A stretch of 11,545 nt of DNA from a virus (Duplodnaviria > Heunggongvirae > Uroviricota > Caudoviricetes), in the IMG/VR virus record IMGVR_UViG_2695420540_000010. One strand, 5' to 3'. This document shows positions 1 to 11,545 of the stretch, in pieces. Position 1 is the stretch's first letter, and each line of letters starts with the position of its first letter. The position numbers and the translations under genes are program-made. The notes under the pieces were generated by a model that was given only the letters and a program-made list of their open reading frames with translations, was not told where the DNA came from and made no database searches.

Positions 1-116
1 TGGTAGTGTCCGCTATTGCCAGTACACCTCAGGGTATAAGGGGTTATGGCCACCGGACTACCAAACGGCTGCCAGCCCTCTTTCAGTTTATGTGTCAGCT
101 TTTCCGCAAGATCTGA
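1..116 (+). pseudogene. Truncated 5' fragment of a paralog of the 76-aa ORF at 11315..11545 (start codon lies just outside the window)
   Basis: Frame 3 reads VVSAIASTPQGIRG... to a TGA at 114-116. The first 10 codons match the N-terminus MVVSAIASTP of the ORF at the opposite end, then diverge. Bases 1-31 are the exact reverse complement of 11514-11544. Confidence 0.3.
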
Positions 117-418
117 CGGCGGCGCCGCCCTGACAACATCATAGTGTTTAAATGCCATGGTTCTTTCCACCATCTGAAAAATAATTCTTTAAAATACCTG
201 ACATGTAATACAGAAAAAACACAAAACCATACCTTAAATAAAAACCTGATTATCAAGCAGATATGCATGGATAAACTACAAGACGAGATATAAACCACCC
301 TGCATTTAAATAAACAATAAACAACATCAGAAAAATAATTCTGCTCTATGGTTTACATTCAAAAATATCATTTATACTTTTCAGAACATCACCAGCAAGG
401 CATAAACAAGGAAACTAA

Positions 419-754
419 ATGAAGTGGATTGTGATTGATACAGTTATCCAGCCATCATGCGGAATATCTTTTTCAGTCATATGGAGTAAAATAAAATTAA
501 TAATCTGGTATCAATCGGATGCTTTCTTACCTCCTGAAAGTATATTTACACTGACTCACACAGGCATCATGCTCAATAACAAAGTGCTACCTGTAACCAT
601 TTACAACGTAGTACCATTCAATAAAACATTCTGGAATTCAATCAAAAATAGCCAGGAATGCCCTACAAATACAGATAACGTATTGAATGAATGCTTTAAT
701 AACCGTTGCACTCTGCAAATATGTCCTTATGGACTAAAACAACAAAGTCCATAA
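419..754 (+). CDS. Hypothetical 111-aa protein in an AT-rich island, opposite in orientation to the rest of the region; possible moron/cargo gene
   Basis: ATG start with AGGA about 8 nt upstream (acaaggaaactaaATG). Local GC roughly 32-38% by hand count of two lines, against about 50% elsewhere. Five Cys residues. No family recognised. Confidence 0.4.
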
Positions 755-790
755 GGAGTTTACTCACATCTGACAAAATCAATATAAACA

Positions 791-1010
791 GCCCCTCCGG
801 AGAGGGGCTGGAGAGTGGCGCTATGTGCCATTGCATGGTGCCGGGTGCCTCCCGGTGAATTCAGTACCAGCACCTGAATCCGCGATTATCCCATATACCT
901 ACTCGCTGATTGCCCCTCCGCACAGGGGGATTCACCATGCCAGTTTCTTTTAACAAACTCCCCGCAAACCAGACAACAGTCAACCGCCTGAATTGTGAAG
1001 TATTTAAAAA
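791..1010. repeat. Copy A of a ~220-bp repeat (near-identical to copy C at 2414..2635)
   Basis: Direct comparison: the sequence from gcccctccggagagggg through ggtgccgggtgcctcccggtgaattcag and cccctccgcacagggggattcaccatgcc to tttaaaaa recurs with only a few substitutions. Confidence 0.85.
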
Positions 1011-1201
1011 TTTCTCCCGCTAACTGATACCCGGCTAACAGTCTGGCGTTTTCTTTTTCAGCAACGGGAAAGCAACAACCACCACACCCGCCACCAGCAC
1101 ACCGTCAGCCAGCACTGACATTATCCGGCTGCTGCAATGCCATTCACAAAAACAGTAAGCAATCACTTTTTACCGTAACAGGTGATAATCCAGATATGTA
1201 T

Positions 1202-1528
1202 CTACCCCAGATGAGTAATCCGAAGTTCATCCATACCACAGGTCCTGGCTATTCTGTTGTACTCCTGAACAAGAGCAAATAATTCTGAATTAGCAACCAT
1301 GAACTCATCGCAAACCCTCTGTATAGCATCACTATTCAGAATAATAACGTCTCTTCCCGAAAGACGATCAGGAGTACAGAACAAAACTGTCAAACGGCTG
1401 AAGGCCTTTGCTCGTGCTGCATTGACTATATCAATACGCTGCCTAAGGATGAAACACCCCGACGCCTCATCAATATTCACTCTACCCACACCATATGAAT
1501 GATAAATATTTAATGCTGAAAAAACCAT
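1202..1528 (-). CDS. Hypothetical protein (108 aa from the ATG; the track ORF extends to a TTG at 1555)
   Basis: Open frame on the late-transcription strand between the tRNA-Arg copy and repeat A. No convincing Shine-Dalgarno for either start and no recognised family. Confidence 0.3.
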   Translation of the reverse strand: MVFSALNIYHSYGVGRVNIDEASGCFILRQRIDIVNAARAKAFSRLTVLFCTPDRLSGRDVIILNSDAIQRVCDEFMVANSELFALVQEYNRIARTCGMDELRITHLG

Positions 1529-1665
1529 TAGACCGTATAACAAACACTCAATCAATACTTAACAGAACTTTTATTTTTGACAAACATAAAATATTTTCAA
1601 CAATATCCTGAGCCAGGTATATTTCAGTATAAGGCTCTGCCGGAAGGAATCTGGAAGAATGAATA

Positions 1666-1742
1666 TGGCGCGCTGTACTGGATTCGAACCAGTGACCGAT
1701 TGCTTAGAAGGCAATTGCTCTGTCCGGCTGAGCTAACAACGC
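1666..1742 (-). tRNA. argO: tRNA-Arg (anticodon UCU), second copy, beside a scaffold gap
   Basis: Reverse complement folds as a 77-nt cloverleaf: acceptor GCGTTGT, D-stem GCTC/GAGC, anticodon stem ATTGC/GCAAT with loop CTTCTAA, T-arm ACTGG-TTCGAAT-CCAGT, encoded CCA. Differs from the copy at 2668..2744 by one base (1673), giving a G-U pair at 4:69. Confidence 0.8.
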
Positions 1743-1885
1743 TGAATACCGATNNNNNNNNNNNNNNNNNNNNNNNNNNNNNNNNNNNNNNNNNNNNNNN
1801 NNNNNNNNNNNNNNNNNNNNNNNNNNNNNNNNNNNNNNNNNGCCAGCTGAAATATTACTTCACGTTTTATTGTTTATTCCTTGCC

Positions 1886-1914
1886 GCCCGCGTCTCCCAG
1901 CGCGGGCTTTTTTT
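1886..1914 (+). terminator. Rho-independent terminator on the plus strand
   Basis: 7-bp GC stem gcccgcg/cgcgggc with loop tctcccag, followed by seven T (1908-1914). Confidence 0.55.
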
Positions 1915-1918
1915 GCCC

Positions 1919-1944
1919 ACAAGAAAACCCCTCCGGAGAGGGGC
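1919..1944 (-). terminator. Candidate intrinsic terminator on the minus strand (hairpin at the start of repeat copy B)
   Basis: Palindrome cccctccggagagggg (6-bp GC stem, loop cgga) followed on the minus strand by ttttcttgtg. Confidence 0.4.
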
Positions 1945-2160
1945 TAAAGCCGCGTATCTGTATCATCATGCACATGGTGCCGGGTGCCTCCCGGTGAGTT
2001 CAGCCCGGTGCCACTAAACCCGCGTCATTCTCGTTTTGATAATCAGAGATTATACCGTCACCAGTCGCCCCTCCGCTCAGGGGGATTCACCATGCGAAAT
2101 TTTTTTAACAAATGCCCAGTCTGACAGGCAACTGTCAACTTACTGAATTGTGAGCAACAT
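1927..2160. repeat. Copy B of the ~220-bp repeat (divergent)
   Basis: Shares the blocks cccctccggagagggg, ggtgccgggtgcctcccggtga, cccctccgc.cagggggattcaccatgc and ctgaattgtga in the same order as copies A and C, with many substitutions and indels. Confidence 0.7.
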
Positions 2161-2189
2161 AGCATTTAACGGGGAACCTGTTTTCTGCA

Positions 2190-2218
2190 GTAAAAAGGCC
2201 CACCGGAGCGGATGGGCC
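2190..2218 (-). terminator. Candidate intrinsic terminator on the minus strand
   Basis: Hairpin ggccca-ccggagcgga-tgggcc followed on the minus strand by TTTTT (plus-strand A-run 2192-2196). Confidence 0.4.
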
Positions 2219-2405
2219 TGGAAGGATAGCGGTCATGTGATGCCGGTTTCCCGGTAACTCAGCACCGGTATCTGAGTCAACGTTTTCTCTACTGGGTCAT
2301 TTCCGATACGCCCTGCCTGCTGACAGGCTTTCATCACATCTGAAAATATAGCACCCTGACTGATACTGTAGTACCTAAGGTTCCAGAAACTGTGATGTAT
2401 CCGGC

Positions 2406-2430
2406 ACAGAAAAGCCCCTCCGGAGAGGGC
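2406..2430 (-). terminator. Candidate intrinsic terminator on the minus strand (hairpin at the start of repeat copy C)
   Basis: Near-palindrome gcccctccggagagggc followed on the minus strand by cttttctgtg. Confidence 0.35.
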
Positions 2431-2635
2431 TGGAGAGTGGCGCTATGTGCCATTGCATGATGCCGGGTGCCTCCCGGTGAATTCAGTACCAGCACCTGAA
2501 TCCGCGATTATCCCATATACCTACTCGCTGATTGCCCCTCCGCACAGGGGGATTCACCATGCCAGTTTCTTTTAACAAACTCCCCGCAAAACAGACAACT
2601 GTCAACCGTCTGAATTGTGAGACATTTAAAAAAAA
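2414..2635. repeat. Copy C of the ~220-bp repeat, immediately downstream (minus sense) of tRNA-Arg(UCU)
   Basis: Near-identical to copy A (791..1010) by direct comparison. Confidence 0.85.
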
Positions 2636-2667
2636 GGCCCGCAAAAGCGAGCCAGGGAAAATAAGTG

Positions 2668-2744
2668 TGGCGCGTTGTACTGGATTCGAACCAGTGACCG
2701 ATTGCTTAGAAGGCAATTGCTCTGTCCGGCTGAGCTAACAACGC
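2668..2744 (-). tRNA. argO: tRNA-Arg (anticodon UCU)
   Basis: 77-nt cloverleaf on the minus strand with a fully paired acceptor stem GCGTTGT/ACAACGC, anticodon loop CTTCTAA, T-loop TTCGAAT and encoded CCA. Confidence 0.88.
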
Positions 2745-2757
2745 ATGATGCAGATAA

Positions 2758-2834
2758 TGGACCGCCATCGGGGACTTGAACCCCGCGCAGCCAGCTTCGA
2801 AGGCTGGCGCTCTTTCCTGATGAGCTAATGGCGG
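2758..2834 (-). tRNA. argN: tRNA-Arg (anticodon read as UCG)
   Basis: 77-nt cloverleaf: acceptor CCGCCAT/ATGGCGG, D-stem GCTC/GAGC, anticodon stem CCAGC/GCTGG with loop CTTCGAA, T-arm CGGGG-TTCAAGT-CCCCG, discriminator U, encoded CCA. The argN name rests on its position in an ileZ-argN-argO-type trio. Confidence 0.8.
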
Positions 2835-2841
2835 TATGTGA

Positions 2842-2917
2842 TGGTGGCCCTTGCTGGATTTGAACCAGCGACCTGGCGATTATGAGTCGCTCGCTCTCAC
2901 CACTGAGCTAAAGGGCC
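2842..2917 (-). tRNA. ileZ: tRNA with anticodon CAU, most likely tRNA-Ile2 (lysidine type) rather than tRNA-Met
   Basis: 76-nt cloverleaf GGCCCTTTAGCTCAGTGGTGAGAGCGAGCGACTCATAATCGCCAGGTCGCTGGTTCAAATCCAGCAAGGGCCACCA. Closely resembles the E. coli ileX/ileY tRNA-Ile(CAU) sequence as I recall it. Confidence 0.8.
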
Positions 2918-2957
2918 GGGAGCCGCATAATAACGACGCGTAATTAATTCTTCAATA

Positions 2958-4016
2958 TCATCCGTTCTGGCTGACTAAATCCTGTACTTCCCGAACCGTC
3001 TGCTCAAAACGTTCAGTCTCCAGCTCAACGCCAATTGCACGACGCCCGAGCGCCAGTGCCGCTTTCACTGTCGAACCCAACCCCATGAAAAAATCTGCAA
3101 TCAGGTCACCCGGACGACTGCTAGCGCTGATTATCTGCTGCAGCATTTCTGCCGGTTTTTCGCACGGATGTTTCCCGGGATAGAACTGCACCGGTTTATG
3201 CGTCCACACATCGGTATACGGCACCTGCACCGTCACGCCAAAATACCGCCGCAGATGTTTATATTCACTCAGCAGCTCCGCATACTGCCGGTTCAGTGAG
3301 GTATACGTATCCACCAGCTGGTGGTGGAGCTTTTCCAGTTCACCACGCCGATGCTTCTCTTCTGCCACCCGGGCAAACAGCGCCTGTAATTTCAGATAAT
3401 CGCTTTCATTCGGCAACTGCCACTGACCGGCACTGAACCAGTGCGACACCATGTTTTTCTTTCCTGTGGCATCTGCAATCTGTTTTGCCGTTATCCCCAG
3501 GGCAGCTCGCGCATCACGAAAGTAAGAAATCAGCGGGGCCATCACATGCTGTTTCAGTGCACTGCCCTTCGCCGCATACCCGGCATCTTTCGGACGATAC
3601 GGCCCCTGATAATGTTCCGCGAACAGAATGCGCTCTGTGGCGGGGAAATACGCCCGCAGGCTTTCCTTGTTGCATCCGTTCCAGCGTCCGGACGGCTTCG
3701 CCCAGATAATATGGTTCAGCACACTGAAGCGTTCACGCATCATGATTTCGATATCAGATGCCAGGCGATGACCACAGAACAGGTAAAGACTTCCGGCAGG
3801 TTTCAGCACCCGCCAGAACTGCGCCAGACACTGGTCCAGCCACTTCAGGTAATCATCGTCGCCCTTCCACTGGTTATCCCAGCCCTCAGGCTTCACTTTA
3901 AAGTACGGCGGGTCCGTGACTATCAGGTCAACAGAATTTTCGGGTAACGACCGGATAAATTCCAGGCAGTCGGCGTTGATTAACTCACAACTGGATATTT
4001 TTACAGTATTAAGCAT
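2958..4016 (-). CDS. DNA methyltransferase, beta-class amino-methyltransferase (N6-adenine or N4-cytosine), apparently orphan
   Basis: 352 aa. Motif IV DPPY near the N-terminus (IVTDPPYF) and the SAM-binding FxGxG motif I near the C-terminus (DFFMGLGST), the circular-permuted order of beta-class enzymes. No restriction endonuclease candidate nearby. Confidence 0.8.
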   Translation of the reverse strand: MLNTVKISSCELINADCLEFIRSLPENSVDLIVTDPPYFKVKPEGWDNQWKGDDDYLKWLDQCLAQFWRVLKPAGSLYLFCGHRLASDIEIMMRERFSVLNHIIWAKPSGRWNGCNKESLRAYFPATERILFAEHYQGPYRPKDAGYAAKGSALKQHVMAPLISYFRDARAALGITAKQIADATGKKNMVSHWFSAGQWQLPNESDYLKLQALFARVAEEKHRRGELEKLHHQLVDTYTSLNRQYAELLSEYKHLRRYFGVTVQVPYTDVWTHKPVQFYPGKHPCEKPAEMLQQIISASSRPGDLIADFFMGLGSTVKAALALGRRAIGVELETERFEQTVREVQDLVSQNG

Positions 4017-4163
4017 GGATCATTAAGCCTGTCTCTGATAGGCTCATTCTGCTTTTGCGCAAAGCAGTGGGCCTGAGGTTTGCTTGTGAACCCAACGCAT
4101 GAGCAGATGGCTGGTGGGTGNNNNNNNNNNNNNNNNNNCCCCCACCAGCCGCCCATTTACCAC

Positions 4164-4191
4164 AAATAAAAAAGCCTTCACTGCGGAAGGC
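4164..4191 (-). terminator. Candidate intrinsic terminator on the minus strand, overlapping the stop of the 65-aa ORF
   Basis: Hairpin gccttc-actgcg-gaaggc followed on the minus strand by ttttttatttg. Confidence 0.45.
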
Positions 4192-4375
4192 GTCTGTAAC
4201 AACCGAACTGATAGTCTGCCAGACCCGCCATAACCAGCTGGGTCAGTATTAACTGGCAGCGTTCGCGTGAAAGGTAAGTATTCTGCGCTATCTCCCCGAC
4301 TGTCGCCGGTTCGGTAACGCTTAATTCATTAAACACCACTCTGGCGGTTTCTGTCATATCCTGCTGTTTTAGCAT
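4178..4375 (-). CDS. Small (65 aa) putative helix-turn-helix DNA-binding protein
   Basis: ATG start with GGAAAA about 5 nt upstream. Segment TVGEIAQNTYLSRERCQLILTQL looks like a helix-turn-helix. Sits between the Q candidate and the methyltransferase. Confidence 0.5.
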   Translation of the reverse strand: MLKQQDMTETARVVFNELSVTEPATVGEIAQNTYLSRERCQLILTQLVMAGLADYQFGCYRRLPQ

Positions 4376-4495
4376 GTCTTTTCCTTTTCCGGTTAACGTG
4401 ACACACCAATAACTCTTGTCGAAAAAGCCAGCAAGCTGAAAGACAGGTATTCACCGCCACCAGCGCGTTTACTGTACTGACGCGATTTCAGTCAT

Positions 4496-4517
4496 AAAAA
4501 ACCCGCTCGGCGGCGGG
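4496..4517 (-). terminator. Intrinsic terminator about 40 bp downstream of the Q-like gene; candidate tR'-type site
   Basis: Minus strand reads cccgc-cgccga-gcggg followed by TTTTTT. Confidence 0.5.
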
Positions 4518-4558
4518 TTGTAGAAACTCTTCTAACGTCAGGCATAAAACGCCCATCG

Positions 4559-5314
4559 TTATGACGAATTTACCACAGATTCCGGAAAAATCAACCTAGT
4601 TACCTTTTTTAACTGCCGCTCAGCCCATGCTTCTTCAATATCAAACCGGGTCACCAGCGCATCATAAAATTTCTTAACTGTTTTTTCCCATGACGCGCGT
4701 GTTATCTGGTTTGTCACCTCGCATATAGCATTAAATGCCTCCGTTGATGGTAGTCTTTCATAGCCACGACCACCACAACGCTGGCAGTCTCTGATAACAG
4801 GCATACCACGTTTTACCGACTCTTCACGATGAATGGCGACACCACGCCCACGGCAATCCTTACAGGCGGTGGAAACCTCACCCTTTCCGCCACACTCCGG
4901 ACAGGCAACTTTTACCACCTCCCTGACTTTTTTCCATTCTTCCCAGTAAGACGGATACACACCTTTCGTACACTTTGCCCATACCGGCGGCTTACCATCC
5001 GGATACTGGATCTTGTTTGTAAAAACCTCGCTTTCAATAAATTTTTTTCCGTGACAGCAGGGGCACTGTTTTTTGCTCGCCGCGCTACGGGCATAATCTT
5101 CAAACGCATACGAAGCCATAATACGCATCACTGCCGGTTTTATTTCTGCCGGGAGTTTTCTTAACGCCGCCACGCGATCACACCGACTGAGTGCATATTC
5201 TGTCAGCAATTCTGTTGCCCGCTCTCTGTCATTCATACTAATGCCCATTTTCCCAAGGAACGCAGAAACCCCCATCTCAGCCCGATTCTGTGTCATGCCC
5301 TGCGCGGCCATCAC
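4559..5314 (-). CDS. Putative late-gene antiterminator Q-family protein (QuuQ/YdfT-like) with DnaJ-type CxxCxGxG zinc-finger repeats
   Basis: 251 aa (GTG at 5314, ATG at 5311). Lies downstream of rusA and upstream of a terminator and the tRNA cluster, the Q position in lambdoid phages. Contains CPCCHGKK, CPECGGKG, CKDCRGRG and CQRCGGRG. Family assignment is from context and memory. Confidence 0.5.
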   Translation of the reverse strand: MMAAQGMTQNRAEMGVSAFLGKMGISMNDRERATELLTEYALSRCDRVAALRKLPAEIKPAVMRIMASYAFEDYARSAASKKQCPCCHGKKFIESEVFTNKIQYPDGKPPVWAKCTKGVYPSYWEEWKKVREVVKVACPECGGKGEVSTACKDCRGRGVAIHREESVKRGMPVIRDCQRCGGRGYERLPSTEAFNAICEVTNQITRASWEKTVKKFYDALVTRFDIEEAWAERQLKKVTRLIFPESVVNSS

Positions 5315-5754
5315 ATCAGTGATACTCAGCGCATCTTTCGACGTTGAGGCCGATGCATCAGTCAGGCCGGGGGATTTTGGGGAGTAGTATTTCGGTAAAT
5401 CTTCNNNNNNNNNNNNNNNNNNNNNNNNNNNNNNNNNNNNNNNNNNNNNNNNNNNNNNNNNNNNNNNNNNNNNNNNNNNNNNNNNNNNNNNNNNNNNNNN
5501 NNNNNNNNNNNNNNNNNNNNNNNATGCGCATCACTACCGGTTTTATTTCTGCCGGAAGTTTTCTCAACGCCGCCACACGATCGCACCGACTGAGTGNNNN
5601 NNNNNNNNNNNNNNNNNNNNNNNNNNNNNNNNNNNNNNNNNNNNNNNNNNNNNNNNNNNNNNNNNNNNNNNNNNNNNNNNNNNNNNNNNNNNNNNNNNNN
5701 NNNNNNNNNNNNNNNNNNNNNNNNNNNNNNNNNNNNNNNNNNNNNNNNNNNNNN

Positions 5755-6097
5755 GGTAAATCTTCACCCCCAGACGTCCACCAGATACTGGCTGACCACG
5801 AACGATATTGATTTCATCAAACTGCTCATCGTCCATTAACACTCCCGCATGTGTCAGTGCATCCAGTGGTGCTTTCAGGATATTGTCCAGGTCACGACGG
5901 CGCTTATCCGGTGGCTCTGCAATAATCTTTATCGCCAGTCTTCCGGACAGGCTTAATTTCAGTCGCTGCTGACGGACAATAAGCGCCACATCCCGGCGAT
6001 AACGCTCACCGGCTTTTGATACAAAATATGTGTTGTCACGACGTCGCCAGTAAGTATTCACCGTCGGCGGATAAGGTAAAATAAACTCATGGCGCAT
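5755..6097 (-). CDS. rusA: Holliday-junction resolvase RusA (3' end lost in an N-run)
   Basis: N-terminus MRHEFILPYPPTVNTYWRRR and the motif PPDKRRRDLDN match the RusA family (E. coli RusA has PDRRRRDLDN). Start overlaps the upstream stop as TGATG. Confidence 0.75.
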
Positions 6098-6339
6098 CAG
6101 CGCAGCACCTCCTGCACCAGTTTTTCAAACTTTCCGACTCTGGTTTCCAGCTCTGCCACACAGTCCACCAGCTCATCTACTGCTTTCTGTGCGCGATGCT
6201 TCGCCTGCATCAGTTCCCGAAGCGCGGGTACCATATCTTTACGGATAGCGTCTTTTGTTATGCCCGTTTTTTCGAGTTGTTCAGCATGACGCAGCATTTC
6301 CTGCGCGTGTTTACGCAATTGTTCAGGGGTAAAAGTCAT
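6097..6339 (-). CDS. Hypothetical helical protein (80 aa from the ATG; track ORF starts at a TTG at 6354), translationally coupled to rusA
   Basis: Its stop overlaps the rusA start. Sequence is rich in E/K/R/L/A. No family recognised. Confidence 0.45.
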   Translation of the reverse strand: MTFTPEQLRKHAQEMLRHAEQLEKTGITKDAIRKDMVPALRELMQAKHRAQKAVDELVDCVAELETRVGKFEKLVQEVLR

Positions 6340-6565
6340 TGTCTGGTTGTTCAAAAGAAACGCTCCATCTTACTGCTGTCAGTTCGTTTATTACTGTATC
6401 TGCGCGGATTGCCGGGCTTCATGGGAGTGGAAAGCACCCGTGCACTTTCCTGGTCCACAGGCAGAAAATGTCCGTAGACTGGCCCCCTGAATCTCCAGAC
6501 AACCAGTATCACTTAAATAAGTGATAGTCTTAATACTAGTTTTTAGACTAGTCATTGGAGTACAG

Positions 6566-6679
6566 ATGATTGATGTCTTAGGGCCGGAGAAACGCAGACG
6601 GCGTACCACACAGGAAAAGATCGCAATTGTGTCAACGCCACGATGTTTGACCGTTATTTGCCATTTTCATGCCCGCTAA
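6566..6679 (+). pseudogene. Truncated N-terminus of an IS66-family-type transposase accessory gene (tnpA/orf1-like), interrupted after about 22 codons
   Basis: GGAG precedes the [25 protein letters not shown] fits the GPERRRRW-EEK-IV N-terminal pattern I associate with IS66-family orf1. The frame then degenerates and stops where the IS21-type sequence begins. Confidence 0.4.
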
Positions 6680-6688
6680 ATACTTTCG

Positions 6689-8245
<1,557 letters not shown>

Positions 8246-8260
8246 NNNNNNNNNNNNNNN

Positions 8261-8462
8261 GCTTATCCGGTGGTTCTGCAATAATTTTTATTGCCAACCT
8301 TCCGGACAGGCTTAATTTCAGCCGCTGCTGGCGAACAATAAGCGCCACTGCCCGGCGATAACGCTCCCCGGCTTTTGATACAAAATATGTGCTGCCACGA
8401 CGACGCCAGTAAGTGTTCACCGTCGGCGGGTAAGGTAAAACAAATTCTATGCGCTCGGTCAT
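8261..8462 (-). pseudogene. rusA: Second rusA copy, N-terminal 67 codons only, cut off by the N-run next to the IS21 element
   Basis: MTERIEFVLPYPPTVNTYWRRRGSTYFVSKAGERYRR...IIAEPPDK. Roughly 90% nucleotide identity to 5886-6097 by eye. Its ATG directly follows the upstream stop (TAAATG). Confidence 0.6.
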
Positions 8463-9521
8463 TTATGCTTTCCACTTCAGAACACCCGAATTTCTCGCGT
8501 GCATTAAAAAACGAATCAGCAACAACAGCTGACTGCCGTGTTTCTCTTCAAAATCTTTTACTCCGGCATGTAGTTCGTTACGGCATTTACGGCATAACGG
8601 AATAACAAACAAATCATCAGCCTTTGTTCCCATCCCTCCCAGTCCATGACCAATGATGTGATGCGGATCATCTGCCTGATTGCCACACGTCATGCATTTC
8701 TGCGTTTTTACCCAGCGCGTGTATACAGGCATCTCTTCCCGTTGTGATTTCTGGCGCTGGAGATACTGAGCCGGTGACTCCGGATCAACGGCAATGCTGA
8801 CCACCGTCTTTTCCTGTGGTGGGTTCTGTTGCTGGTGGACGTGAGGCAGTAACGCAATATTTTTTGTGCGCTGCTTCAGTATGCTGGTGGCTGTCTGCTC
8901 TCCCGGTATGATGTCGCTTTCACTGTACACAGAGCGAATTTTTTCCGCACGCAACCCCAGCGAACGACGTAATACCGCTTCCGGTAGCGCGTCCGCCACC
9001 TGATTGCGGACCGCCCACCAGGATAATTCAGCCAGAGATAATTCACGCTCCTGCGTACCGCTTATTGCGTGACCGATGACGTCAATCATCCATGCTGACA
9101 GGTTTTGATGAGCAAGTTGCTCGAGTGATTCGGATGTCTGGTCACGCAGCTGGTTGTCGCAGTGCCAGCACAACACCATTGCGCCGGTACCATAACGGTG
9201 AATGACGGTTTCGCTGTGATGATAATCGCCGTGTGGCCACTGGCAGGATTTAATATGGCGCAACAGCCAGTCAGACAATGCACCAGCACCACCAGCAGCA
9301 CGAATCACCCGTGCGTTACTGAAAAACGGCAGCAATGTTTTGTCTTCCACCAGCGGCTGGCGAGCGGCAGGAACGACCCCGGACGGCAGATTACGCATGC
9401 TTTTTGGTTCCGGCTCCACCAGTATTCTGCCGTTATGGAATGCTGACATTGATTCACGGCCTGGCTTAACGATAACCAGACCGAGTTCCGGTACCAGAAC
9501 AGGTCGAAGTAATACCCGCAC
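8463..9521 (-). CDS. Phage nin-region protein with a C-terminal HNH endonuclease motif (possibly YdfU/DUF968-like)
   Basis: 352 aa from a GTG with GGAGG 4 nt upstream (alternative ATG 24 codons in). C-terminus CMTCGNQADDPHHIIGH...LCRKCRNELH fits CxxC...D.HH...CxxC.N..H. The DUF968 assignment is from memory. Confidence 0.6.
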   Translation of the reverse strand: MRVLLRPVLVPELGLVIVKPGRESMSAFHNGRILVEPEPKSMRNLPSGVVPAARQPLVEDKTLLPFFSNARVIRAAGGAGALSDWLLRHIKSCQWPHGDYHHSETVIHRYGTGAMVLCWHCDNQLRDQTSESLEQLAHQNLSAWMIDVIGHAISGTQERELSLAELSWWAVRNQVADALPEAVLRRSLGLRAEKIRSVYSESDIIPGEQTATSILKQRTKNIALLPHVHQQQNPPQEKTVVSIAVDPESPAQYLQRQKSQREEMPVYTRWVKTQKCMTCGNQADDPHHIIGHGLGGMGTKADDLFVIPLCRKCRNELHAGVKDFEEKHGSQLLLLIRFLMHARNSGVLKWKA

Positions 9522-9522
9522 A

Positions 9523-9801
9523 TTACCTCCAGATCCGTTGCTGGAATGTGCGGGACGGACGCGTTGGCCGTTCGGAGTAAGGGAGCCTGACGGAGATTAT
9601 CCAGTGACGGTAGTCGAGGCTAAGGGCTTTTTTAACCTCGCATCCGCGCCTGCGGTAACACTGAATGAGCCATTCGGCCTGTTCTTCAGTGCATGGGGGA
9701 TGCTGGTACCAATCAGATTTAAATGCGTGAGAGCGCCGCCCGTGCCTGCTGGCAAAGACGGCTGAATTATCAGAATTGTGTAGTCTGGAATTTTGCGCCA
9801 T
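9523..9801 (-). CDS. Hypothetical 92-aa protein; may instead be the out-of-frame 5' part of the downstream HNH gene
   Basis: ATG with GGAG 7 nt upstream. Stop lies 1 nt before the GTG of the next gene, in a different frame. Confidence 0.4.
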   Translation of the reverse strand: MAQNSRLHNSDNSAVFASRHGRRSHAFKSDWYQHPPCTEEQAEWLIQCYRRRGCEVKKALSLDYRHWIISVRLPYSERPTRPSRTFQQRIWR

Positions 9802-9867
9802 CGGCTTTCTCCGGTGGCACAGTGTTACTCAACAGGGGTTCAGCCCTGCGCTGAATTGTAGATGAAT

Positions 9868-10128
9868 TCACTCATCTTCAAAAGCAGAAAAACCAGCCTT
9901 AATCCCAGCTTCTTTCAGAGACGGCAACGATGTGACAAATTCATTTGCACGCGAAATAAAACCATCCGTCACAAGCCCATCCACAAAATGAATTAACGCA
10001 GCTCCACTCTTCCTTTGTTGAGACTGTAAACATTTAATACGGCAGTGGCTGACAATAGCGCCATTCTCAACGCGCACAGTATAGAGGCCATCTTCACTAA
10101 AAATTTCACGTAATTCTTCGATTTTCAT
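9868..10128 (-). CDS. Hypothetical 86-aa protein
   Basis: ATG with GGAAGGA 8 nt upstream (the track ORF starts one codon earlier at a TTG). No family recognised. Confidence 0.5.
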   Translation of the reverse strand: MKIEELREIFSEDGLYTVRVENGAIVSHCRIKCLQSQQRKSGAALIHFVDGLVTDGFISRANEFVTSLPSLKEAGIKAGFSAFEDE

Positions 10129-10248
10129 CAACAGAATCCTTCCAGATAAATAGCACTCCCCTGTTCGGGGTCCATCCCTCTTCTCCCTGCGCGCTACTTA
10201 AGTATTTTTGATTCTATTCCGGCACCATCTAAAACTTCAAACGCGTTG

Positions 10249-10278
10249 AAAATAAAAACAAAAACCCGCCGAAGCGGG
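10249..10278 (-). terminator. Intrinsic terminator downstream of hok
   Basis: Minus strand reads cccgc-ttcg-gcggg followed by tttttgttttt. Confidence 0.6.
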
Positions 10279-10348
10279 TTAAGTGTGGGTGCATTGAGGA
10301 TGCCTGACCCATCAGAGGTGGCGAGGGATTTCTCCCCCGCCTGGTCTC

Positions 10349-10504
10349 TTACTCCTCAGGTTCGTAAGCTGTGAAGACAGCGACCTCCGTCTGGCCGGTT
10401 CGAATTCGTACCTCGCAGAGGTCTTTCCTCGTTACCAGTGCCGTCACTATGACGGTTAAACAGATGACGATCAGGGCGATTAACATCGCCTTTTGCTGCT
10501 TCAT
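10349..10504 (-). CDS. hokD: Hok/Gef-family type I toxin (HokD/RelF-like, 51 aa); the in-frame 70-aa extension to 10561 is a Mok-like frame
   Basis: MKQQKAMLIALIVICLTVIVTALVTRKDLCEVRIRTGQTEVAVFTAYEPEE matches the Hok family, and HokD as I recall it. AAGGAG lies 9 nt upstream. An upstream in-frame ATG at 10561 has its own GAGG. Confidence 0.85.
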   Translation of the reverse strand: MKQQKAMLIALIVICLTVIVTALVTRKDLCEVRIRTGQTEVAVFTAYEPEE

Positions 10505-10795
10505 AGCCTGCTTCTCCTTGCCTTTCGGCACGTAAGAGGCTAACCTAGATTTGCCGTTCATAGATTGAGCCTCAGATTAATGTTAAGCGTCTTGCCGGAC
10601 GCGTAATGTTAACTGGGGCTTTTCTCTATCTGCCTTTTGGTGTTCATGCCTGAGACAGATAGCCTCAAGCACCCGCTGCAATTCTACTTAACTCTCCTTT
10701 TCCCGCAAACCGTTTTTATCCCCAGCGGCAAATCGAATACACCACCAGCGCCACCGCCATCGCAATTCCTACCGTTGTTAATGCTTCAGGCCAGG

Positions 10796-11140
10796 TCATC
10801 GTAAAATATCCTCCACGCTTATCAGTCCGTTCCGCTCCAGATAACTCATCGCCTTATCCGGTAATTTGCAGTCTGGCTTCGCTTTCCTCAGTTGCCAGGT
10901 TAACTGCTTTACCAGCATGGTTAACTCATCGACCAGACGCTGATATCCCACTGGTTTGTATTCATGCAATTTACCGGCTGGCTCTGCTGCCAGCGATACC
11001 AGTGCGATTTCCAGAACAGCAATATCCATCTTATATGTGCGGATGATGTCATGGTCGATTGTGCCCGGTATGCACAGTCTCTGTGCTTCAATAGTCTCCT
11101 CTGCGTGAGCTATTAACTGCTCTCTGGTAAAAGTCGTCAT
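10796..11140 (-). CDS. Hypothetical 114-aa protein, paralogous in its N-terminal part to the upstream 55-aa ORF
   Basis: ATG overlaps the upstream stop (ATGA). Shares MTT.T.E and IAL.SL.AEP....EY with the 55-aa ORF. Confidence 0.55.
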
Positions 11141-11304
11141 GCCGTAGCCCCTTCTTGATATTTTTCAAACCAGAACACAACCGGCTCTGCTTCCAGCGAT
11201 GCCAGCGCAATCCGTGCCAGTTCCATTTGTTCACCACGGGTAAGCCCGTTTTCAAGCGGGTTTTTAATGAACAATTCAATACGTTCTTTGGTAATAGTGG
11301 TCAT
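11137..11304 (-). CDS. Hypothetical 55-aa protein (below the ORF-track length cutoff)
   Basis: Translated by hand: [61 protein letters not shown] lies 7 nt upstream of the ATG. Stop overlaps the next gene's start. Confidence 0.55.
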
Positions 11305-11314
11305 GTGTTACTCC

Positions 11315-11545
11315 TTAACCCGCAGTGCTTTCAACTGATGAGGGGAACAAAATCTTTTCATCAAACCCTGCATTCATATCATGAACAGCAACACACCAAT
11401 CCATCGACGAACGATTATCAAGAGCCTCCATGATTTCATCCATGCGGCGTAGGTCATACAGGTAAATGCTTTTATCGCCAATGGTGTAAAAGCCAATTTT
11501 TTTCGGTGATGGATGAGGTGTACTGGCAATAGCGGACACTACCAT
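11315..11545 (-). CDS. Hypothetical 76-aa protein whose start codon is the last three bases of the window
   Basis: ATG to TAA open frame, followed 10 nt later by the next gene with a strong SD. No family recognised. Confidence 0.5.
   Translation of the reverse strand: MVVSAIASTPHPSPKKIGFYTIGDKSIYLYDLRRMDEIMEALDNRSSMDWCVAVHDMNAGFDEKILFPSSVESTAG

Follow-up and report, generated by a model that had tools for sequence, protein, structure and literature searches.

An stx-free counterpart of the Shiga-toxin slot of lambdoid prophages, with iraL as its main gene, most likely doubled by the scaffolding of two Shigella sonnei prophage remnants

The subject of this analysis is the late-regulatory 'moron slot' of lambdoid prophages, which extends from the antiterminator gene Q to the nanS-p and lysis genes, as it is found in a stretch of Caudoviricetes DNA of 11,545 nucleotides (nt) (IMG/VR record IMGVR_UViG_2695420540_000010), hereafter called the window. 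Its closest described relatives are the stx2 locus of Shiga toxin 2 (Stx2) phages and the iraL locus of Escherichia coli CFT073. Phage 933W is reportedly an example of the former, and phage Lyz12581Vzw (NC_049917; locus L003), in which a trio of tRNA genes is followed by stx2AB, STnc100 and nanS-p, served as the Stx2-phage reference. The small RNA (sRNA) element STnc100 has been located 75 nt downstream of stx2B (PMC12370729), and the Hfq-binding sRNA EcOnc27/sRNA103 partly overlaps a predicted STnc100 copy 3' of stx2B (PMC12711010). STnc100 is related to PasD, whose place is upstream of the esterase gene, and a PasD/STnc100-esterase-holin arrangement has been described (bioRxiv 10.64898/2026.05.13.724894). 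In CFT073, the gene iraL was named by Hryckowian et al. (2014; PMC4045071), who found that IraL binds RssB at its N-terminal domain and lengthens the half-life of RpoS (sigma-S) in log phase, that deletion of iraL in CFT073 shortens this half-life from about 5 to 2.5 min, and that log-phase sigma-S is likewise lower in an S. sonnei iraL deletion mutant.

The window as a whole is very probably this late-regulatory slot, free of stx and composed of two S. sonnei prophage remnants joined over a scaffold gap. The slot is the common stx-free counterpart of the Shiga-toxin slot in E. coli and Shigella lambdoid prophages, and its main gene is iraL. On its minus strand the window reads as the late-regulatory part of a lambdoid prophage, in which a DUF968 gene, RusA, a phage-82-type Q, an open reading frame (ORF) of 65 amino acids (aa), a DNA methyltransferase gene and tRNA genes succeed one another. 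Two separate slots would be present. Slot A (1842-2917), lying after Q, the 65-aa ORF and the methyltransferase gene, would consist of ileZ, argN, argO, a terminator, STnc100-C, a degenerate unit, STnc100-B and a terminator, with nanS-p coming next in complete genomes. Slot B (1-1753) would consist of (ileZ), argO', phrog_2873, DUF3927, STnc100-A, iraL in reversed orientation and a 5' remnant of nanS-p cut by an insertion sequence (IS). The features are as follows.

1-158, minus strand: start of the esterase gene nanS-p, left as a 5' remnant (DUF1737 N-terminus, ATG at 158) and cut by an IS3-family element whose last ~31 bases open the window
419-754, plus strand, opposite to the phage late genes: ORF of 111 aa and 35% GC, assigned to iraL (IraM-family RssB anti-adaptor) by NCBIfam, PDB and identity to CFT073
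780-969, minus strand: STnc100 copy A, Rfam RF02076 at 132.4 bits over model positions 1-206, with an intrinsic terminator hairpin at 789-810
1035-1166, minus strand: DUF3927, small hydrophobic protein of 43 aa beside the phrog_2873 ORF, Pfam PF13064 at 95.6 bits, phrog_1470, annotated by RefSeq in relatives
1202-1555, minus strand: conserved prophage protein phrog_2873, with candidate starts at TTG 1555 (117 aa), ATG 1528 (108 aa) and GTG 1480 (92-aa conserved core)
1666-1742, minus strand: second tRNA-Arg(UCU), argO-type (argO'), of 'prophage B', ARAGORN and Rfam tRNA at 68 bits
1915-2124, minus strand: STnc100 copy B, Rfam 161 bits, with a bidirectional terminator hairpin at 1886-1907
2190-2363, minus strand: degenerate STnc100-like unit, RF02076 at 30.1 bits (E=5e-4), below the gathering score, with its own hairpin at 2196-2219
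2402-2591, minus strand: STnc100 copy C, Rfam 123.6 bits, parted from the tRNA genes by a hairpin at 2636-2653
2668-2917, minus strand: tRNA trio, in transcription order ileZ, argN and argO types, by ARAGORN, Rfam and identity to Stx2-phage and CFT073 tRNAs
2668-2744, minus strand: argO-type tRNA-Arg(UCU), ARAGORN and Rfam
2758-2834, minus strand: argN-type tRNA-Arg(UCG), ARAGORN and Rfam
2842-2917, minus strand: ileZ-type tRNA-Ile2(CAU), ARAGORN and Rfam
2958-4016, minus strand: orphan N6/N4 DNA methyltransferase of 352 aa between Q and the tRNA genes, Pfam N6_N4_Mtase at 144 bits, PADLOC MTase_II at 540 bits
4178-4375, minus strand: 65-aa ORF between Q and the methyltransferase gene
4559-5314, minus strand as the tRNA genes: Q antiterminator of phage-82 type with a zinc ribbon, Pfam Antiterm at 162 bits, phrog_127

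The site is the same as that of the stx locus. The tRNA trio with its flanks (2627-3068) is 91.7% identical to the Stx2 phage, and STnc100-B with its downstream flank (1842-2153) is 85% identical to L003 5258-5560, which sits between stxB and nanS-p. Homology extends from the methyltransferase gene, reduced in that phage to a 153-nt remnant in the same place (L003 7229-7381), to ~40 nt beyond argO and restarts at STnc100-B; therefore stx2AB with its upstream region, a block of ~1.34 kb, stands in for window 2154-2626. An upstream Q in late-gene orientation, an ileZ-argN-argO trio directly upstream of the cargo, and STnc100/EcOnc27 with nanS-p downstream are all found, and of the traits of an Stx locus only the stxA and stxB genes themselves are missing. 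A tblastn search of the whole window with Stx2A and Stx2B of Lyz12581Vzw gave a best E-value of 0.44, and the possibility that Stx remnants persist in the window was rejected on this result. A first-pass annotation of this DNA, made from the sequence alone, had placed the trio in the Stx-phage position with no stx in the slot that follows, and this is borne out by the flank identities and the tblastn result. Its order of a Q candidate followed by the trio holds as to direction; the two are, however, not adjacent, as the 65-aa ORF (4178-4375) and the 352-aa methyltransferase gene (2958-4016) intervene.

The second component of this reading, the joining of two prophages, follows from BLAST comparison with complete S. 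sonnei loci, in which prophage A denotes the methyltransferase locus of S. sonnei 53G (L032) and prophage B the iraL locus (L022). The window divides between them in this way.

1-1753: 100% identical to prophage B
1754-1841: N run of 88 bases hiding a join, with prophage B to the left and prophage A to the right
1842-5404: prophage A, at 100% over 1842-4120 and without mismatches but with one 8-nt gap over 4141-5404; includes an N run at 4121-4138
5405-5523: N run
5524-5596: 100% identical to prophage B
5597-5754: N run
5755-8245: 99.96-100% identical to prophage B
8246-8260: N run
8261-11545: 99.9-100% identical to prophage A

All three switches between A and B fall inside N runs, of which the window has five. 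These were considered as length-preserving masks, a notion rejected because 158 Ns correspond to 248 nt in prophage B and 18 Ns (+2) to 9 nt in prophage A; from these lengths they appear to be gap sizes estimated by a scaffolder. The 73 nt isolated at 5524-5596 carry the prophage-B version of a Q segment whose A allele is also found, at about 5121-5193, and look like a popped-bubble contig. Along the phage direction come the left arm of A, the left arm of B, a shared Q, the right arm of A and the right arm of B, a layout in keeping with a collapsed Q repeat that a scaffolder has put into linear order; the Q genes of A and B are 96% identical. The ends of the window (1-31 and 11514-11544) are inverted copies of ~31 bases which adjoin IS3-family transposase genes in L022 and L032; inverted IS3-family termini at both ends are a typical Shigella contig boundary, and the window resembles a complete short-read scaffold. 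In the complete genomes HE616528, CP104423 and CBDDMI010000001 a distance of 0.67-0.78 Mb separates the two loci (at 1.32 and 2.10 Mb in 53G, HE616528, and at 2.53 and 1.86 Mb in CP104423). Among 5426 complete E. coli genomes none holds at least 80% of window 1-2960 in one place, and related loci that carry argO have it as a single copy in 35 of 35 cases, against two in the window. By this comparison the doubled slot is, with high probability, an artefact, the scaffold join of two S. sonnei prophages. The ~2.6 kb that follows the trio had been taken for one slot at first; it is split by the 88-base N run and, because the two sides of that run match different S. sonnei prophage loci at 100%, it is probably not one contiguous locus.

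Both ORFs to which attention had been drawn, at 419..754 and 1202..1528, are present as described. The product of the first matches NCBIfam NF007393 ('anti-adapter protein IraM') at 162 bits against a curated cut-off of 121, and the IraM structure 8twd of the PDB at E=6e-31. It is identical at 110 of 111 residues to WP_000871291 of the CFT073 potB prophage, above the identity of at least 95% to CFT073 iraL that defines the IraL subtype (PMC4045071), and the DNA of the locus is 99.07% identical; identity to K-12 IraM is 61%, and complete S. sonnei genomes encode a protein identical to that of the window. Judged by these matches, ORF 419-754 is iraL, a characterised cargo gene; it is not unknown cargo, because the protein to which it is nearly identical, in the same context, is the CFT073 IraL named and tested in PMC4045071. 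As predicted from its near-identity to the IraL proteins of CFT073 and S. sonnei, the window protein would bind RssB at its N-terminal domain, which would keep RpoS from delivery to ClpXP and raise log-phase sigma-S, a pathway shown by others in those two hosts. Because iraL faces against late transcription, it would be self-contained, with its own promoter, and transcribed in the lysogen; the remaining slot genes would be read from PR' under Q. Precomputed Pfam hits for loci L013-L047 place IraL under PF11183 (PmrD, another small connector protein), and our own Pfam-A scan gave no match at E<=0.01; IraL and PmrD may share a fold. Next to iraL, at the window start, positions 29-159 are 91-92% identical to the starts of SASA/NanS-p genes in L002 and L032, and a 57-aa DUF1737 gene is called at the equivalent place in L022 and L038.

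The ORF at 1202-1555 matches phrog_2873 (E=3.8e-70), and is, on its sequence conservation, a real, widespread prophage gene under purifying selection. A second clade, 54-60% identical, occupies the same slot downstream of an AraC-like regulator; between the clades dN/dS is 0.26, with 24, 22 and 44 differences at codon positions 1, 2 and 3, and the other frames of the ORF give ratios near 1 or contain stops. The regulator that precedes phrog_2873 in that clade is an AraC-family protein of 241 aa (HTH_18) (L009 3969-5062, L005 2933-5360), and in L005-L008 an IS3-family element parts the two genes. The exact 108-aa protein occurs in 7259 index blocks of the contig collection, and in the related prophage loci examined the ORF comes directly after a phage tRNA-Arg. 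A profile search of 1.84 billion representatives returned 21 relatives, the distant ones being of 91-95 aa and aligned to the core from GTG 1480; none of the 21 could be linked to a named family, and the six that were scanned match only PHROGs of unknown function. The start is uncertain because the N-terminal extension from TTG 1555 is conserved in some members and frameshifted in others. AlphaFold gives a two-helix hairpin at a pLDDT of 76, so that the structure prediction proposed for this ORF yielded a model, though no informative fold match; on this model the product is a helical-hairpin protein, under purifying selection. RefSeq/PGAP carries no annotation of the ORF in CFT073 (L037 22554-23052), AREA_499 or strain 2D (L001 7139-7637 and L002 6949-7450), and other gene callers include it.

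The repeats that had been noted in the slot turn out to be three sRNA genes of the STnc100/EcOnc27 family, a degenerate copy and a second tRNA-Arg(UCU). Membership was judged by a full-length match to RF02076, whose gathering score is 47 bits, together with a 3' terminator hairpin: copies A, B and C match the model over positions 1-206 at 124-161 bits, and the fourth unit, at 30 bits, falls short of the gathering score. Each unit closes with a GC-rich hairpin and a T run, and each would be a structured RNA of ~200 nt with its own intrinsic terminator. The terminators were also rightly recorded, since terminator-like hairpins are enriched in 1-4700 (18 seen against 4.6 +/- 2.4 expected); the second tRNA-Arg(UCU) had been missed. 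Copies A and C are 96% identical, as are window 2410-2632 and the prophage-B (L022) equivalent of copy A, and copy B is the closest of the window copies to the STnc100 just 3' of stx2B in the Stx2 phage. By analogy with EcOnc27/sRNA103 of Stx2 phages, the window copies may be expressed as Hfq-associated sRNAs. Directly upstream of every full copy, including the Stx2-phage copy 3' of stx2B, a motif TCACAATTCAG-N3-GTTGACAGTTG, also written TCACAATTCAG-N3-GTTGAC(A/T)GTTG, is conserved (970-1000, 2125-2160 and 2592-2625 in the window, about 5532-5570 in L003); it holds a perfect TTGACA, without an obvious -10 at the right spacing.

The window contains four tRNA genes, all on the minus strand according to ARAGORN and all confirmed by Rfam tRNA at 58-72 bits; the two argO-type copies differ at one of 77 bases. 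The CAU tRNA is 100% identical to the tRNA annotated as Ile2 in Lyz12581Vzw and to CFT073 tRNA-Ile, and RefSeq labels the identical gene as tRNA-Ile. In alignment with K-12 genes its acceptor and anticodon stems closely resemble those of ileX, metT being far more distant, and it has the pairs C4-G69 and C5-G68, which are reportedly TilS determinants of tRNA-Ile2. With this ileX-like body it has the sequence expected of tRNA-Ile2, from which lysidine at C34 and charging with Ile are predicted. GenBank records of Stx phages carry argN/argO/ileZ annotation beneath the trio match, and the isotypes proposed at first (Ile CAU, Arg UCG and Arg UCU) hold on the combined evidence of ARAGORN, Rfam and the ileX-like rather than metT-like CAU tRNA. 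These tRNAs would read the rare codons AUA, CGA and AGA/AGG, a role for which the supporting counts are that AGA, AGG and CGA make up 7 of the 11 Arg codons of the phrog_2873 ORF and that iraL has six AUA codons.

Several observations weigh against the account given so far. The join lies within Ns, which leaves room for a real recombinant in this one strain. A scan of the contig collection for the B/A junction (both flanks, with a gap of 78-98 nt) came back empty, the window included, a weak negative as the real gap length is not known, and the same junction pattern does match the window sequence itself. A consensus scan gave no convincing sigma-70 promoter for the STnc100 copies of the window, and a rare-codon supply role for the tRNAs is inferred. 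A genuine doubling would mean that two resident prophages had recombined in the source strain and stacked their cargo modules in tandem, the conserved tRNA and STnc100 flanks serving as points of exchange, to give the order argO, STnc100 units, argO', phrog_2873, DUF3927, STnc100 and iraL. Such flanks do exist, in argO copies that differ at 1 of 77 bases and in STnc100 copies A and C at 96% identity, and the tRNA-cargo-STnc100 frame carries cargo that differs by phage (stx2AB, AraC-like with phrog_2873, TolA-like or nothing). However, the B-to-A join falls outside both, in the N run that has the upstream flank of argO' on one side and the downstream flank of STnc100-B on the other; two more A/B switches within 11.5 kb also coincide with N runs, between which the 73-nt Q fragment is isolated; the lengths of these runs are estimates rather than true lengths; and the arrangement is seen in no complete genome and in no fetched locus. 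A real tandem slot is thus quite improbable, and a scaffold join of two prophages remains the preferred explanation of the doubling.

The other alternative is that of the first-pass annotation, in which the ORFs at 419-754 and 1202-1528 are candidate uncharacterised cargo standing in place of stx. For the 111-aa ORF this is refuted by its identity, at 110 of 111 residues, to CFT073 IraL, which was tested experimentally in 2014 (PMC4045071), and the slot content is moreover one of the commonest prophage configurations of E. coli and Shigella. The description does fit the ORF of 108-117 aa (phrog_2873), for which Pfam, NCBIfam and PADLOC give no match and fold comparison is uninformative, and which RefSeq leaves unannotated in CFT073, AREA_499 and strain 2D; it also stands for the 43-aa DUF3927 protein. 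As an account of both ORFs it has very little to recommend it. The ORF at 1202-1555 is the sole truly uncharacterised one, and a modest lead. Its product might be an overlooked functional factor in lysogenic conversion or in the late phase; a small helical hairpin that travels with iraL and binds a host protein would be one example. This proposal is speculative and rather unlikely.

Some further features of the late region and of the rest of the window may be added. The true Q gene encodes 273 aa, and its first codons fall in the N run at 5405 (Q of L032 lies at 4607-5428, and the window match stops at L032 4616); a tR'-like terminator was found beside Q at 4500-4519 by the terminator scan. 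S. sonnei 53G and further complete genomes of the species encode the exact methyltransferase protein. An IS21-family element occupies 6689-8245, with a complete istB (6689-7489) and a partial istA (7486-8127). Beyond it, after a gap of 15 Ns, comes a RusA gene (8124-8462) that breaks off at about codon 67; another RusA, more complete, is located at 5564-6097. A hok/sok type I toxin-antitoxin pair is found at 10349-10674, where a Hok-like ORF of 70 aa (10349-10561) is accompanied by an Rfam match to sok (10499-10674, 112 bits).

Family membership, synteny, purifying selection on phrog_2873 and the absence of stx are established in this analysis. The stx-free tRNA slot, iraL and STnc100 have all been described previously, the locus is already known, and as a discovery the window is of little weight. 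Parts of window 1-2960 are matched in 3338 of 5426 complete E. coli genomes, and the arrangement is extremely common. The only unusual trait of the window is the doubled slot, most likely a scaffolding artefact. The window clearly exemplifies how, in a Shigella draft rich in IS, contigs of paralogous prophages become interleaved in a scaffold that may pass for a novel cargo locus. The comparison also fixes the exchange frame precisely, as tRNA-Arg(UCU), cargo and STnc100, in which the cargo is stx2AB, phrog_2873 with DUF3927, an AraC-like regulator, TolA-like genes or none, and it flags phrog_2873 as a widespread small gene under purifying selection which all three RefSeq genomes checked leave without annotation. 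In the loci fetched, what lies between the tRNAs and the esterase and lysis genes is stx2AB, phrog_2873 and DUF3927 with or without iraL, AraC-like with phrog_2873, TolA-like, or nothing; varied cargo in one frame is the familiar moron-exchange picture of lambdoid phages.

Among known systems, K-12 IraM (b1160, next to e14; PDB 8twd) belongs to the same family as IraL, with 61% identity and the same target, RssB. Its coding sequence alone aligns (70%), however, and its flanks have no homology to the iraL slot, for which reason the K-12 iraM locus was rejected as a decayed copy of the slot. In MG1655 iraM (L011 3414-4004) is situated just outside the annotated right end of the cryptic prophage e14, beside the icdC pseudogene. 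The potB-island lambdoid prophage of CFT073 (PMC4045071) is far closer, with Q, tRNA-Ile/Arg/Arg, an unannotated phrog_2873 ORF, DUF3927, STnc100, iraL on the opposite strand, a DUF1737 remnant and a holin, and with DNA 99.07% identical over window 29-1753. It differs in that an IS200 parts Q from the tRNAs and the whole trio stands immediately upstream, whereas the slot-B half of the window starts at a lone argO' after an N gap and its nanS-p remnant is cut by an IS3-family element. The uropathogenic E. coli (UPEC) strain NU14 has slot A in the same form, free of protein genes. Segments of the window are 99.9-100% identical to prophage remnants of S. sonnei, which lie at 1.32 and 2.10 Mb in 53G (HE616528) and occur in further complete genomes too; the exact IraL, methyltransferase and phrog_2873 proteins are present there, and a full nanS-p follows in locus A. 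In those genomes, however, the remnants form two loci 0.67-0.78 Mb apart, which the window interleaves with N runs at each switch. With the stx2 locus of Stx2 phages such as Lyz12581Vzw the window shares Q, the methyltransferase gene (a remnant there), ileZ-argN-argO, cargo, STnc100/EcOnc27, nanS-p and the lysis genes. Where that locus has its stx2AB region of ~1.3 kb, slot A has two more STnc100-type units, and slot B has phrog_2873 and DUF3927 instead, with iraL beyond the sRNA.

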